Origin: Escherichia coli
GTDB lineage: Bacteria > Pseudomonadota > Gammaproteobacteria > Enterobacterales > Enterobacteriaceae
Direction: 5' to 3' (one strand)
NCBI RefSeq assembly: GCF_003018255.1
Contig: NZ_CP027440.1
DNA length: 64,000 nt
Positions 21,931-24,785 of the stretch are shown here, piece after piece (position 1 is the first letter of the stretch; each line of letters opens with the position of its first letter). The translations under genes were made by a program, and so were the position numbers. The notes under the pieces were generated by a model. That model saw nothing but the letters and a program-made list of their open reading frames with translations. It made no database searches and was not told where the DNA came from.

Positions 21931-22311
21931 TCAGGCAACCTGTACCGGAATCGCTTTCGCGGTACGTTTCATTTCATTGTCGCCTTCAAAATAGGCGACG
22001 TTGGGTCGCCAGGTGCGAGCTTCTTCATCTGGCATAGTAACGAAGCTGGCGATGATGACAATATCGCCGACGCTGGCGCAGTGGGCCGCCGCACCGTTAA
22101 CGGAAATAATTCTCGAACCGCGTTCTGCCGCGATGGCATAGGTGGAGAAACGCTTGCCGTTGGTCACATTCCAGATATCAATGGCTTCGTTTTCGAGAAT
22201 ACCAGCTGCGTCAAGAAAATCCTGGTCAATGGCGCAAGAACCTTCATAGTGCAGGTCCGCATGAGTCACTTTCACGCGGTGGAGTTTGCCCTGCAGCATC
22301 GTGCGAATCAT
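21931..22311 (-). CDS. panD: aspartate 1-decarboxylase proenzyme
   Basis: [33 protein letters not shown]... (Gly24-Ser25 self-processing site present). Confidence 0.95.
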
Positions 22312-22584
22312 AACTTCTACCTTTCTACCCTGTCGTTAACGAAGCAGGCGATGCCTGCTTTGAGGAAATTCTCACGCAGTATTGCCCGATTTTTGTTTAG
22401 TGTCTACTCATCTGACGGCATTTGCATCAGCAGTTTGCGTACCGTGCCGAAGCGTGCCATGTAACGCCTGTAACCAATTGAAATTTCTCTGAACGCTGCT
22501 CGGTAAACAATAAAGAGGCGGCTGACGACGGCGCGCCTTGACTGGATACTGCCTTCACGCAAGACAACACGGAAGGCAGGGAAG

Positions 22585-23517
22585 ATGGATGCACCGAGTA
22601 CCACACCGCATGACGCGGTATTTAAACAATTTTTAATGCATGCGGAAACGGCTCGTGACTTTCTGGATATCCATTTGCCAGCGGAACTACGCGAACTGTG
22701 TGACCTCGACACGCTGCATCTTGAGTCGGGGAGTTTTATTGAAGAAAGCCTGAAAGGGCACAGCACTGACGTGCTTTATTCCGTGCAAATGCAGGGTAAT
22801 CCCGGTTATTTGCATGTGGTGATTGAACATCAAAGCAAGCCGGATAAGAAAATGACCTTTCGCATGATGCGCTATGCCATTGCCGCCATGCACCGGCATC
22901 TGGAGGCGGATCACGATAAGCTGCCGCTGGTGGTGCCGATTCTGTTTTATCAGGGCGAGGCCACACCTTATCCGCTCTCAATGTGCTGGTTTGATATGTT
23001 TTACTCGCCGGAGCTGGCGCGACGCGTCTATAACAGTCCTTTTCCGCTGGTGGATATCACTATCACACCGGATGACGAAATCATGCAGCACCGGCGGATC
23101 GCGATTCTCGAACTACTGCAAAAGCATATTCGCCAGCGCGACTTAATGTTATTGCTGGAGCAACTGGTCACGCTGATTGACGAAGGGTACACTAGCGGAA
23201 GTCAGTTAGTTGCCATGCAAAACTATATGCTGCAACGCGGTCATACTGAACAAGCGGATTTGTTTTATGGTGTGTTGCGAGACAGGGAAACGGGAGGGGA
23301 GTCTATGATGACGCTGGCGCAGTGGTTTGAAGAGAGGGGAAGACAGGAGGAAAGGCAGGAGGTAAGACAGGAGGTAAGACAGGAGGTAATACAAGAGGTT
23401 AGACAGGAAGTAAGACAGGAATTCGCCCTGCGTTTTCTGAGTAAAGGGATGTCTCGGGAAGACGTTGCAGAGATGGCAAATTTACCTCTTGCTGAGGTTG
23501 ATAAGCTGATTAGCTAA
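22585..23517 (+). CDS. rpnC: Rpn-family (YhgA-like, PD-(D/E)XK) recombination-promoting nuclease with repeat-rich C-terminal tail
   Basis: 310-aa ORF MDAPSTTPHDAVFKQFLMHAETARDFLDIHLP...; N-terminal nuclease-like D...EHQ.K motif; C-terminal (E/Q)VRQ repeats; K-12 YadD is 300 aa as I recall. Confidence 0.9.
   Translation: MDAPSTTPHDAVFKQFLMHAETARDFLDIHLPAELRELCDLDTLHLESGSFIEESLKGHSTDVLYSVQMQGNPGYLHVVIEHQSKPDKKMTFRMMRYAIAAMHRHLEADHDKLPLVVPILFYQGEATPYPLSMCWFDMFYSPELARRVYNSPFPLVDITITPDDEIMQHRRIAILELLQKHIRQRDLMLLLEQLVTLIDEGYTSGSQLVAMQNYMLQRGHTEQADLFYGVLRDRETGGESMMTLAQWFEERGRQEERQEVRQEVRQEVIQEVRQEVRQEFALRFLSKGMSREDVAEMANLPLAEVDKLIS
23343..23426 (+). repeat. seven imperfect 12-bp tandem units inside rpnC encoding RQEE/RQEV repeats
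   Basis: GACAGGAGGTAA-like units read directly from sequence. Confidence 0.85.
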
Positions 23518-23585
23518 GTTATCTGCATTATCAGTTATAGCCAGATAATTGTTATTGTTAACTGACCAGATAATTAAGGGAACAT

Positions 23586-23838
23586 ATGGAAATAAAGACA
23601 CGGAGAGAAACCAGGCAGACGTTGGCGCAGTGGTTTGAAGAGAAGGGATTTCAGAAGGGATTTCAGAAGGGATTTCAGAAGGGATTTCAGAAGGGATATA
23701 AAGAGGGGATATAAAGAGGGGCTCCGGAAGGTAAGGCTGGCCCAGCGTCTTCTGAGTAAAGGAATGTCTCGGGAAGACGTTGCAGAGATGGCAACTTTAT
23801 CTCTTACAGAGGTTGATAAGCTAATTAACTCTAACTAA
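23586..23838 (+). pseudogene. orphan Rpn C-terminal tail cassette, frame-disrupted by a 13-bp tandem duplication
   Basis: SD-like AAGGGA + ATG 23586; MEIKTRRETRQTLAQWFEEKGFQKGFQKGFQKGFQKGYKEGI* in one frame, ...RLLSKGMSREDVAEMATLSLTEVDKLINSN* in the +1 frame; 4 x AGAAGGGATTTC and 2 x GATATAAAGAGGG. Confidence 0.6.
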
Positions 23839-23933
23839 GTTGTCTGCGTTATGAATAATCGCTTACAGACGTCATCGCCATGACGTGGGGTAAATTAATA
23901 ACTGGCGCCATCAGCCGTAGCGCCAGATAAGGA

Positions 23934-24785
23934 TTACGCCAGTTCGACGATTTTGTTGTCGATCAGGCGAGCATCGCCAAGCCAGGCGGCTACCAGAATC
24001 ACTGCCCGTTTGCTGTTTTCAGAGACTTCCTGCAACGTGTCGGCATCACGAATCTGAATATCATCGGCGCGGAAGCCTTTTTCATTCAGTTCTTGCCCGG
24101 CAATAGCAATAATTTCATCGAGATCCCGTTCCCCAGCCTGCAATTTGTCGGCAATTGAACTTAAAACTTTGTACAGACCGGGCGCAATTTTGCGTTGTTC
24201 CGCCGTCAGATAACCGTTACGGGAACTCAGCGCCAGACCGTCTTTGGCGCGCATAATTGGCACACCGATAATCTCAATATCAAAGCCCATATCAGCAACC
24301 ATTTTGCGGATCAGCGCCAGTTGCTGAAAATCTTTTTCACCGAAGCAGGCGATGTCCGGCTGGACCAGATTGAACAGCTTGCTGACAATCGTCGAAACGC
24401 CGCGAAAATGTCCCGGACGGCTGGCACCTTCCAGCATGGTGGAAAGACCGGGAACATCAACATAGGTGTGGGTTTCTGTACCGTTCGGGTAGATCTCTTT
24501 TACCGAAGGCGCGAAAACTAGATCCACTTTACGTTTGTTCAGCTTTTCGCAGTCCTCTTGCAAGGTCCGTGGATAACGTGCCAGATCTTCCGGGCGGTCA
24601 AACTGCATCGGGTTAACGAAAATACTGACCACTACCACATCGGCGCGGGCTTTGGCTTCGTCGACCAGCTTCATATGGCCATCGTGCAGGTTACCCATGG
24701 TGGGCACCAGCGCCACGCGCTTACCTTCCATACGCAGGCGGCGAATTTGCTGACGCAGCAGCGGCAGGGTTTCGATAATTAACAC
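23934..24785 (-). CDS. panC: pantoate--beta-alanine ligase
   Basis: (M)[36 protein letters not shown]...; first codon reads GTG. Confidence 0.95.

Follow-up and report, generated by a model that had tools for sequence, protein, structure and literature searches.

A tandem array of seven 12-bp units in the rpnC (yadD) gene of Escherichia coli is, with a probability that we put at about 0.85, the hypervariable four-amino-acid repeat of the RpnC toxin-antitoxin pair, in which it sets the pairing of the nuclease toxin RpnC-L with the antitoxin RpnC-S. The array is the one already published for this pair (Zhong et al., PNAS 2023, PMC10400941; commentary, PMC10400984), and its recovery here is a rediscovery. 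In the published system, the antitoxin RpnS is made from an internal start within the gene of the RpnL nuclease toxin, and its first helix contains the repeat (PMC10400941). The repeat is of interest as the specificity determinant of a toxin-antitoxin pair whose antitoxin is translated inside the toxin gene, an arrangement in which one slippage event re-keys toxin and antitoxin together. To this, the present analysis adds a unit-level picture of two adjacent expandable sub-arrays, of the IEKG type and the RQEV type, with 2 to 10 units in total in E. coli; the location of the changes in runs of identical units; and a pseudogenized rpnCSs copy with an expanding 13-bp unit.

The rpnC gene and its 12-bp array

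The stretch of DNA that was analyzed, here called the window, comprises 64,000 nucleotides of E. coli contig NZ_CP027440.1. The gene and its array lie as follows.

22585 to 23517, plus strand: rpnC (yadD), the full-length reading frame (310 aa), which specifies RpnC-L, a PD-(D/E)XK nuclease toxin (open reading frame list, Pfam, NCBIfam, and synteny)
23341 to 23424, plus strand: 12-bp array of seven units, (R/I)QE(E/V/F), from residue 13 of RpnC-S (Tandem Repeats Finder, units in codon register, 2 to 10 units among strains)

In the window, rpnC is flanked by panD and panC, and RefSeq annotates rpnC at the same position in E. coli genomes. Residues 7 to 207 of the protein match Pfam PF04754 (Transposase_31/YhgA-like; E = 6e-87), and with 275 bits the protein is above the cut-off of 52 for NCBIfam TIGR01784 (Rpn family). 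The nuclease motifs read as intact, with D10, D62, E81, Q83, and PDDEI162 corresponding to D11, D63, E82, Q84, and D165 of RpnA, which are the residues mutated by Kingston et al. 2017. Judged from its sequence, RpnC is an Rpn protein with an N-terminal Transposase_31/PD-(D/E)XK domain and its catalytic residues. A PADLOC 2.0 search (PADLOC-DB 2.0) of the region returned no matching Rpn model, and a sequence search of full-length RpnC against PDB chains gave chance-level matches only, RpnA-S not being among them.

Tandem Repeats Finder reports the array at 23340 to 23420 with a period of 12, 6.8 copies, 85% matches, and a score of 120. Its lag-12 self-identity is 60/72, compared with a window-wide mean of 19.7 (standard deviation, 4.5) for 84-bp segments, and comparable values are found in the window only here and in the array of the adjoining cassette. 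In codon register, the units are AGACAGGAGGAA, AGGCAGGAGGTA, AGACAGGAGGTA, AGACAGGAGGTA, ATACAAGAGGTT, AGACAGGAAGTA, and AGACAGGAATTC, encoding RQEE RQEV RQEV RQEV IQEV RQEV RQEF. The sequence-only reading that preceded this work had described a seven-unit, in-frame 12-bp array inside rpnC with exactly this peptide; it had placed the array at 23343 to 23426, which is the same array but 2 bases out of register.

Across alleles, the rpnC array consists of two adjacent sub-arrays, IEKG-type units followed by RQEV-type units. The window allele lacks the former and is expanded in the latter. An i/i+4 stripe of hydrophobic or glycine residues is kept in every unit type, namely, RQEV, IEKG, and the KGFQ type of the neighboring cassette.

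The K-12-type allele (locus L011, O16:H48) encodes 300 aa, the length that the sequence-only reading had given for K-12. That reading had taken the difference from 310 aa to be consistent with variation in repeat number. Repeat number accounts for +12 aa, in the form of three extra units of the other type, but the net difference of +10 aa also includes a loss of 2 aa at the C terminus, where the alleles end in KLIS and KVINLI.

The predicted antitoxin RpnC-S

Three features of the rpnC tail bear on the antitoxin.

23293 to 23307, plus strand: predicted internal translation start of the antitoxin RpnC-S, with a Shine-Dalgarno sequence GGAGG (23293 to 23297), a 7-nt spacer, and ATG at 23305 (ATGATG, codons of M241 and M242 of the full-length protein), from reading the sequence
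23305 to 23517, plus strand: RpnC-S reading frame, 70 aa, nested in frame in rpnC (translation, AlphaFold2, and Foldseek)
23425 to 23514, plus strand: conserved C-terminal part of RpnS (ALRFLSKGMSREDVAEMANLPLAEVDKLIS), comprising the end of helix 1 and two short helices, helix-turn-helix-like (alignment, model, and Foldseek)

An in-frame internal start with a ribosome-binding site is thus predicted at 23293 to 23307, and the peptide that begins the tail, MMTLAQWFEE, is kept in 27 of the 27 alleles examined. For the rpnC gene of MG1655 (K-12), internal initiation and the RpnC-S protein were demonstrated experimentally by ribosome profiling and SPA tagging (PMC10400941). A consensus scan of the plus strand upstream of the internal start and upstream of the cassette found no sigma-70-like promoter, so that the internal transcript reported for K-12 finds no support in the sequence. 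That the tail is also made alone, from an internal start, as the antitoxin of the full-length nuclease had been missed by the sequence-only reading.

The published rule is that the repeats, of one hydrophobic and three charged or glycine residues, begin 8 to 20 residues after the start methionine of RpnS (PMC10400941). In RpnC-S, the units begin at residue 13, and each combines one hydrophobic residue with three that are polar or charged; this position and composition fit the rule, and the RQEE, RQEV, IQEV, and RQEF units are accordingly four-amino-acid repeats of the RpnL/RpnS kind. The window gene further agrees with the published RpnC in the gene itself, in its panD-panC locus, in the tail start MMTLAQWFEE with its internal Shine-Dalgarno sequence and ATG codon, in 12-bp units of this composition that begin 12 residues after the internal methionine, in a unit number that varies among strains, and in the presence of a downstream rpnCSs copy.

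An alignment of 56 tail sequences contained 20 invariant columns, most of them within the conserved C-terminal part. RpnC-S was modeled twice as a monomer with AlphaFold2, from a deep, gappy alignment in one run and from a shallow set of aligned long alleles in the other. The models are all-helical (mean pLDDT, 69 to 70; residues 31 to 70 at 72 to 87), with predicted helices at residues 24 to 46, 51 to 57, and 62 to 69, and both runs place a low-confidence break, or kink, at residues 17 to 23, inside the repeat. Among the Foldseek matches listed, the highest TM-scores were to 7th0, a crystal structure entitled "E. coli RpnA-S" (target-normalized TM, 0.85; root mean square deviation, 1.1 Å; 44 columns; E-value of 1.8, not significant). 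The lack of significance is expected, because the domain has only 46 residues. The fold of RpnS in the RpnA-S crystal structure consists of a long first helix and a compact bundle of three helices, and it is residues 31 to 70 of the models that superpose on 7th0. The other matches were to helix-turn-helix domains, including those of the DeoR, resolvase, and LuxR types, all with nonsignificant E-values, and Pfam HTH_3 matches the tail weakly. A sequence search of the 70-aa tail against PDB chains gave chance-level matches only and did not find RpnA-S, and the tail had no matching family model in the Pfam library. Precomputed protein-database annotation places PF27070.1 on many Rpn tails.

Copy number among strains

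To survey variation, 60 genomes spread by rank were drawn from 5,424 E. coli genomes; 20 loci of these were sequenced, and 27 loci were sampled in all. The 60-genome sample contains arrays of 2, 3, 4, 6, 7, 8, 9, or 10 units, with RpnC lengths from 290 to 322 aa and every allele in frame. A comparison of 105 non-redundant tails gave length differences in multiples of 4 aa for 100 of them. In the live gene, changes were seen as whole 12-bp units only, and none of the 27 loci carries a frameshifted rpnC. The array had been proposed to be a hotspot in which copy number changes while the frame is kept, a proposal that invariance across strains would have contradicted; the 2 to 10 units in the sample bear the proposal out.

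The changes fall in runs of identical units. AGACAGGAGGTA is present once, twice, or three times in L025, the window, and L021, respectively; AGACAAGAGGTA is present once in L004 and three times in L005; and ATTGAGAAGGGA is present twice in L007 and four times in L008. Because gains and losses in runs of identical units point to slippage or unequal recombination, the mechanism of copy-number change would most likely be slipped-strand mispairing or unequal recombination between identical neighboring units.

Within one haplotype, array change outpaces point mutation. Six near-identical local haplotypes have 5 SNP columns in 3.66 kb, none of them between 21953 and 24005 and hence none in rpnC or the cassette, yet all three arrays differ. 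The pairs L021/L023 and L022/L024 show zero SNP differences over 3.66 kb and are 1 or 2 repeat events apart. The clade with the frameshifted rpnCSs and the window share a common local haplotype, not a clonal genome (best match of the 25-kb flank, 99.4%, in DETEC-S792). The 301-bp tail segment from 23230 to 23530, which includes the array, recurs with 100% identity in independent complete genomes, those of DA33135 and JNE112863 among them.

The downstream rpnCSs cassette

Downstream of rpnC lies a second, smaller gene copy with arrays of its own.

23586 to 23838, plus strand: rpnCSs, a stand-alone second copy of the RpnC-S gene, a frameshifted pseudogene in the window (open reading frames at 23586 to 23714 and 23635 to 23838)
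23641 to 23697, plus strand: second 12-bp array, in rpnCSs (AGAAGGGATTTC; four KGFQ units and then KGYK; Tandem Repeats Finder, 4.8 copies, 100% identity)
23694 to 23719, plus strand: two copies of the 13-bp unit GGATATAAAGAGG in rpnCSs (Tandem Repeats Finder, 23689 to 23721, period 13, 2.5 copies)

The cassette is homologous to the rpnC tail in blocks of 31 nt (94%), 88 nt (91%), and 18 nt after the stop codon, with block identities of 89 to 94%. An orphan cassette with a different 12-bp unit in four copies had been reported from the sequence, and this array is real. Three further points had escaped that reading: the array of rpnC comprises two sub-arrays; the orphan cassette is the described rpnCSs (PMC10400941, Fig. 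2I), frameshifted here; and the system as a whole had already been published.

The 13-bp unit GGATATAAAGAGG consists of a unit of the 12-bp type plus one G from a G-run. Its off-register duplication shifts the frame and brings in a TAA at 23712, which makes rpnCSs a pseudogene: frame 0 stops at 23712 to 23714, with the C-terminal domain still encoded in the +1 frame, up to 23838. The window thus contains a homologous cassette whose reading frame is broken in place of a stand-alone rpnCSs gene. An intact rpnCSs of 65 to 71 aa is present in L001 to L008, L012, L025, and L027, and RefSeq labels rpnCSs as frameshifted in five related genomes. DA33135 is among the strains with an intact copy. In contrast to the published rpnCSs, therefore, the window copy is inactivated by the 13-bp duplication, which itself varies in copy number. 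There is one copy in L025 and L001; two in the window, L021, L023, and L026; and three in L022 and L024. The KGFQ units number 1, 2, 3, or 4 in related genomes. The exact cassette with the 13-bp duplication also occurs in strain E04, with close variants in four more genomes. The main text of PMC10400941 makes no mention of an RQEV-type allele accompanied by an rpnCSs inactivated in this way.

With one copy of the 13-bp unit the frame is open, and with two or more the TAA is in frame, so that the unit is formally like that of a contingency locus (one copy open, two or three closed). Changes in its copy number might shift the frame reversibly and so switch the stand-alone antitoxin copy by phase variation, in which case an orphan antitoxin would phase-vary next to a length-tuned toxin-antitoxin pair. 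We hold this to be very doubtful; a one-copy revertant carrying the derived GGGG variant was not present among the 60 best matches. More modestly, the unit can be read as a natural experiment suggesting that slippage of Rpn arrays is blind to frame (here the register slipped by one base within a G-run) and that the 12-bp unit of live arrays is maintained by selection alone. Frame-blind slippage bears on the question of dodecamer expansion raised by Zhong et al., who speculate on a role for RpnL itself (PMC10400941). The expanding, off-register 13-bp unit in a dead rpnCSs favors simple slippage plus selection over a frame-aware mechanism.

The KGFQ and KGYK units of rpnCSs match Pfam Yae1_N (E = 1.6e-5, below the family cut-off) and NCBIfam FliH models (E down to 1.3e-6, far below the cut-offs). 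Glycine stripes with a four-residue period on a helix are a motif type of helix-helix packing. Such a stripe is what the units share with the GxxxG/AxxxG repeats of FliH and YscL and with the Yae1_N motif; the likeness is one of composition and period alone, with no relation in function or context.

Proposed pairing specificity and alternative readings

In the proposed explanation, rpnC would encode the full-length PD-(D/E)XK DNA endonuclease RpnC-L, and an internal ribosome-binding site and the ATG at 23305 would yield, in the same frame, the 70-aa RpnC-S. Identical to the C-terminal tail of RpnC-L, RpnC-S would bind RpnC-L and block its toxicity. The repeats, with a V or F every four residues in the RQEV type, would lie in the long first helix of the tail, which would form the dimer interface. 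In standard helix geometry, four helical residues correspond to about 6 Å and 40 degrees of rotation. Since each unit adds four helical residues, only partners with equal unit numbers would pair, and since one stretch of DNA encodes toxin and antitoxin alike, a change in copy number would affect both at once. Such a matched change would keep the pair working while insulating it from other RpnS proteins, such as those of paralogues, the downstream rpnCSs, and possible phage mimics. Selection would remove out-of-frame products from the live gene.

The central step has been demonstrated for the K-12 allele. Addition of one KGIE unit to K-12 RpnC-S abolished neutralization of RpnC-L unless RpnC-L carried the unit too (PMC10400941, Fig. 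4D). In the RpnA pair, RpnA-S bound RpnA-L and inhibited DNA cleavage by it in vitro (PMC10400941). An effect of tail length on partner specificity, put forward in the sequence-only reading for future work, had therefore already been examined for RpnC with a positive outcome. The specificity role of the RpnC repeat was established in 2023, and the finding opens no new question; a follow-up of the literature on the repeat mechanism found nothing beyond PMC10400941 and its commentary. The window allele differs from the one used in that experiment in that it has seven RQEV-type units instead of IEKG/KGIE units; by analogy, we infer that it would behave like the K-12 IEKG-type allele. Phage pressure may drive the repeat variation. 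Anti-phage activity among Rpn proteins has been shown only for the plasmid-borne RpnP2, and not for RpnC.

The array could instead be a neutral, slippage-prone, low-complexity linker in which any length is tolerated and copy number has no functional meaning. The confinement of changes to runs of identical units agrees with this idea, as do the differences that near-identical haplotypes show in both arrays (KGFQ and 13-bp) of the frameshifted rpnCSs; variation in a dead gene copy implies that mutation pressure alone can generate variation. A one-unit mismatch, however, abolished neutralization in vivo (PMC10400941, Fig. 4D), the live gene is restricted to whole 12-bp units, and the i/i+4 stripe persists in RQEV, IEKG, and KGFQ units alike. 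A neutral linker is very unlikely on these grounds.

The repeat might also act as a DNA-recognition spacer, its number setting the contact distance in a dimeric nuclease and thereby target preference, as in HsdS of EcoR124I and EcoR124II. The analogy with the TAEL repeats of HsdS was drawn by Zhong et al. (PMC10400941), and the two systems share in-frame 12-bp units of 4 aa, a helical spacer, and a change of specificity with one unit. The TAEL repeat, however, sets the gap in the recognized DNA (N6 versus N7), whereas the demonstrated effect of the Rpn repeat is on the pairing of toxin and antitoxin proteins. That the variable tail may set DNA preference was suggested by Kingston et al. 2017, and the tail resembles a helix-turn-helix in the Foldseek and HTH_3 matches noted above. 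Those Foldseek matches are all nonsignificant, purified RpnA showed little if any sequence specificity (Kingston et al. 2017), and RpnS-RpnL pairing is the only property on which repeat number has a measured effect (PMC10400941), and we consider a spacer role highly improbable. A spacer role could hold alongside toxin-antitoxin pairing.

As in the contingency loci of Neisseria and Haemophilus, the repeats in rpnC are coding and tandem, differ in copy number between strains, and change much faster than point mutation; an on/off phase-variation switch nevertheless has almost no probability, given a 12-bp unit that, being a multiple of three, tunes length and not expression, alleles of 290 to 322 aa that are all in frame, and no frameshifted rpnC in 27 loci. 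The mark of a phase-variable contingency locus, a unit that is not a multiple of three with both states in the population, was not found, and the length of the unit, together with the intact alleles, rules out phase variation of rpnC itself. An assembly or sequencing artefact, which might be suspected because many Rpn tail fragments in public data break off at contig edges, which suggests a region hard to assemble from short reads, has just as little probability and is ruled out by the 301-bp tail segment shared by independent complete genomes, while the cassette with the 13-bp duplication likewise recurs.

At its 3' side, the rpnC-rpnCSs unit ends at a further element.

23902 to 23926, minus strand: terminator-like hairpin behind the convergent panC gene, where the rpnC-rpnCSs unit has its 3' boundary (consensus scan only)

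This putative terminator is kept in all loci, including those that lack the cassette.

The rpnC gene and its predicted nested antitoxin

The rpnC gene (yadD) contains a 12-bp tandem array near its 3' end and lies between two pan genes.

21931-22311, - strand: panD, one flank of rpnC
22585-23517, + strand: rpnC ORF, 933 bp, 310 aa, from the ORF list
23341-23424, + strand: array of seven units in codon register, translated as RQEE RQEV RQEV RQEV IQEV RQEV RQEF
23934-24785, - strand: panC, the other flank of rpnC

In Tandem Repeats Finder the array spans 23340-23420, with period 12, 6.8 copies, 85% matches, and a score of 120. The lag-12 self-identity of the array was 60/72; the full set of 84-bp segments in the window gave 19.7 ± 4.5, and the only lag-12 outliers were this array and that of the downstream cassette. 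These measures agree with the codon units that the array is real, and its peptide is exactly the one given by the sequence-only reading. The same tail sequence was found in independent genomes, which rules out an artefact.

All E. coli genomes examined carry the annotation rpnC or "Rpn family recombination-promoting nuclease" at the panD-panC position. Residues 7 to 207 of RpnC matched Pfam PF04754 (Transposase_31, YhgA-like; E=6e-87), and the whole protein passed the NCBIfam Rpn-family model TIGR01784. The nuclease motif is complete (D10, D62, E81, Q83, and PDDEI162), its residues being the counterparts of RpnA D11, D63, E82, Q84, and D165, which were mutated by Kingston et al. in 2017 (PMC5350276). 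Within the gene, GGAGG at 23293-23297 is followed after 7 nt by ATGATG at 23305, the predicted internal start of the antitoxin RpnC-S. This protein of 70 aa has the N-terminus MMTLAQWFEERG, kept in all alleles examined, and its first repeat unit is at residue 13.

AlphaFold2 models of RpnC-S were all-helical. Among the Foldseek matches listed from the PDB, 7th0 ("Escherichia coli RpnA-S") had the top TM-scores, with a target-normalised TM of 0.85 and an rmsd of 1.1 Å over 44 columns; for a domain this small, its E-value was not significant. The remaining matches listed were helix-turn-helix domains, a resemblance also noted from HHpred by Zhong et al. (PMC10400941). That resemblance is the sole argument for an HsdS-like DNA-spacing role of the repeat, which is very improbable given that RpnA has little sequence specificity (PMC5350276).

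Correspondence with the published RpnL/RpnS system

RpnS has been described as a small protein identical in sequence to the tail at the C-terminus of RpnL, the full-length nuclease, and as the antitoxin of toxic RpnL, the tail carrying four-amino-acid "dodecamer repeats" (Zhong et al., PNAS 2023, PMC10400941). In its crystal structure RpnA-S forms a dimer of three-helix bundles, with the insertion point within the long first helix. When a KGIE unit was added to RpnC-S, it no longer counteracted RpnC-L unless RpnC-L had the same extra unit; a commentary summarizes the same points (PMC10400984). The comparison of tail length with partner specificity proposed from the sequence alone is therefore already in the literature. 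The mismatch experiment contradicts a reading of the array as neutral linker polymorphism, as does the strictly conserved i/i+4 stripe.

The window rpnC appears to fit each sequence-level feature of the RpnL/RpnS system. The 12-bp array phenomenon was published in detail in 2023 for rpnC itself, and its detection here is a rediscovery. Specific to the window are a member of the RQEV-expanded class of alleles and an rpnCSs probably inactivated by slippage, rpnCSs being the stand-alone second copy of the RpnC-S gene; this is a minor variant and not a new kind of system, useful as an illustration of the mutational process.

Copy-number variation among strains

Of 5,426 complete E. coli genomes, 5,424 gave a match to a 301-bp query spanning the tail of rpnC. 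Sixty records were sampled in even steps down the match ranking; 20 loci were read in sequence and the others were assigned by alignment signature. Relative to the query, the match spans differed in steps of 12.

Repeat units in rpnC (records of 60)
2 units: 1
3 units: 5
4 units (K-12 type included): 37
6 units: 6
7 units: 6
8 units: 3
9 units: 1
10 units: 1

RpnC is 290 to 322 aa long across this range of 2 to 10 units. In the protein database, the anchors WFEE and LSKG lay 12, 16, 20, 24, 28, 32, 40, or 44 aa apart in 100 of 105 non-redundant tails. The reading of the array made beforehand was thus essentially right, including its prediction that copy number varies among strains. The 12-bp unit rules out phase variation of rpnC. 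Many public RpnC tails in the protein list were partial, from very short contigs or contig ends, which suggests that the rpnC tail region or its paralogues often break short-read assemblies; repeat counts from draft genomes need care.

The array consists of two adjoining sub-arrays, IEKG/MEKG-type and then RQEV-type. K-12 has KG-IEKG-IQQG-RQEV-SQEF, E2348/69 has eight IEKG-type units, and the window has seven RQEV-type units and no IEKG/MEKG-type units. The 310 aa here versus 300 aa for K-12 had also been taken as consistent with variation in repeat number. The window allele does have three more units, but it has two residues fewer at the extreme C-terminus, so the difference is not simply one of copy number.

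Changes within runs of identical units

Among 27 E. coli rpnC loci used for comparison (L001-L027), alleles one or two units apart differed within runs of identical units: AGACAGGAGGTA occurs once in L025, twice in the window, and three times in L021; AGACAAGAGGTA once in L004 and three times in L005; and ATTGAGAAGGGA twice in L007 and four times in L008. Point substitutions sit in older units (IQEV, TQEV, and SQEF). This pattern is what would be expected from slipped-strand mispairing or unequal exchange of identical neighbours.

The local haplotype of the window is common to five other genomes. The 3.66-kb panD-panB stretch has only 5 SNP columns, with none within 21953-24005, and indel polymorphism was confined to three tandem arrays.

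Repeat units in the shared haplotype (rpnC, KGFQ, 13-bp)
Window: 7, 4, 2
E04 (L021): 8, 4, 2
200164 (L023): 7, 3, 2
JNE112863 (L022): 7, 3, 3
JNE23-011 (L024): 7, 4, 3
2017.09.02CC (L026): 7, 2, 2

Without any SNP difference over the 3.66 kb, E04 is separated from 200164 by two repeat events, and JNE112863 from JNE23-011 by one. Because the best identity to the window over a 25-kb flank was only 99.4%, the five genomes are not clonal with it, and the comparison is one of a shared local haplotype.

The rpnCSs cassette

The downstream cassette is rpnCSs, and as the sequence-only reading had it, it carries a different 12-bp unit in four copies (KGFQ).

23586-23838: rpnCSs cassette
23694-23706 and 23707-23719: two copies of the 13-bp unit GGATATAAAGAGG

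Homology between rpnCSs and the rpnC tail lies in three blocks: one of 31 nt with 94% identity, one of 88 nt with 91% identity, and one after the stop. The repeat arrays of the two are unrelated. The cassette query was at least 80% covered in approximately 1,443 of 5,426 genomes; K-12, O157:H7, and E2348/69 are without it. In L013 (strain 19KM1803, locus 856-1746), RpnC is 296 aa and ends in AEMATLSLTEVDKLINSN, the rpnCSs C-terminus, with no cassette downstream, and it looks as though a deletion had fused the body of rpnC with the tail of rpnCSs. Both rpnCSs deletion and rpnC-rpnCSs fusion are in Zhong et al. (PMC10400941).

In other strains rpnCSs is intact: the ORF is 65 to 71 aa long and contains the KGFQ unit once or twice; L001, for instance, has MEIKTRRETRQTLAQWFEEKGFQKGYKEGLQKVRLAQRLLSKGMSREDVAELANLPLAEIDKLINSN. 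In the window, the 13-bp duplication causes a frameshift with TAA at 23712 and breaks the cassette, leaving no intact stand-alone rpnCSs ORF; RefSeq labels the gene "frameshifted" in the five genomes that have this local haplotype as well. The 13-bp unit consists of a 12-bp-type unit and an extra G from a G-run; this run is GGGG in the derived haplotype versus GGGA in intact alleles. The copy number of the 13-bp unit is one, two, or three among otherwise near-identical haplotypes, and this out-of-frame repeat is itself expanding, also in L021-L024 and L026. The array is thus shown to mutate in steps that need not be in frame, and to do so still in a dead gene; we therefore argue that selection, not mechanism, holds live arrays to multiples of 12. 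A reversible on/off switch of rpnCSs, intact with one copy of the unit and not with two or more, is unlikely; no revertant was seen among the best 60 cassette matches.

Where rpnCSs is intact (L001-L008, L012, L025, and L027), it has 3 to 6 KGFQ/KGYK units and the adjoining rpnC array has 6 to 9, and the two never match in unit type or number. Because of this mismatch, under the published matching rule, intact rpnCSs should not neutralise the resident RpnC-L.

Other sequence features

GGAGG, a Shine-Dalgarno-like motif, occurs in each of the first four RQEV-type units (23341-23388), as AGGAGGT in three. These sites are spaced by 12 nt, 36 to 80 nt downstream of the internal RpnC-S start; that they could alter how ribosomes pause or initiate on this message is pure speculation. 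An antisense ORF of 62 aa (23206-23394, - strand, beginning MYYLLSYLLSYLLPFLL) arises from the reverse complement of the repeat; it is almost certainly no gene but a by-product of the array. A promoter-like site at 23527-23555 (- strand, ATAACA-17-GATAAT, 9/12 matches) is aimed antisense into the rpnC 3' end and is a consensus match only; 3 such sites were found versus 1.8 expected in shuffles.

In L010 (O157:H7 strain 2571), which lacks the cassette, the rpnC-panC intergenic region is 298 bp, with about 220 extra bases containing TTATGTAAGCTCCTGGGGATT that presumably resemble the ERIC/IRU intergenic repeat. Elsewhere in the window, an ordinary 303-bp tandem repeat lies at 1436-2298 (2.8 copies, 79% identical); to judge by position and translation, it probably encodes the three lipoyl domains of aceF, the E2 subunit of pyruvate dehydrogenase. 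Short imperfect repeats at 5862-5969, inside an ORF at 5127-6884 (- strand), encode a His/Asp-rich stretch, DDDDHDHHHHDDDDYHHHD; the 585-aa product is secreted-looking, has QRQ..SASPEQRQVF segments repeated further along, and is unrelated to the rpnC array.
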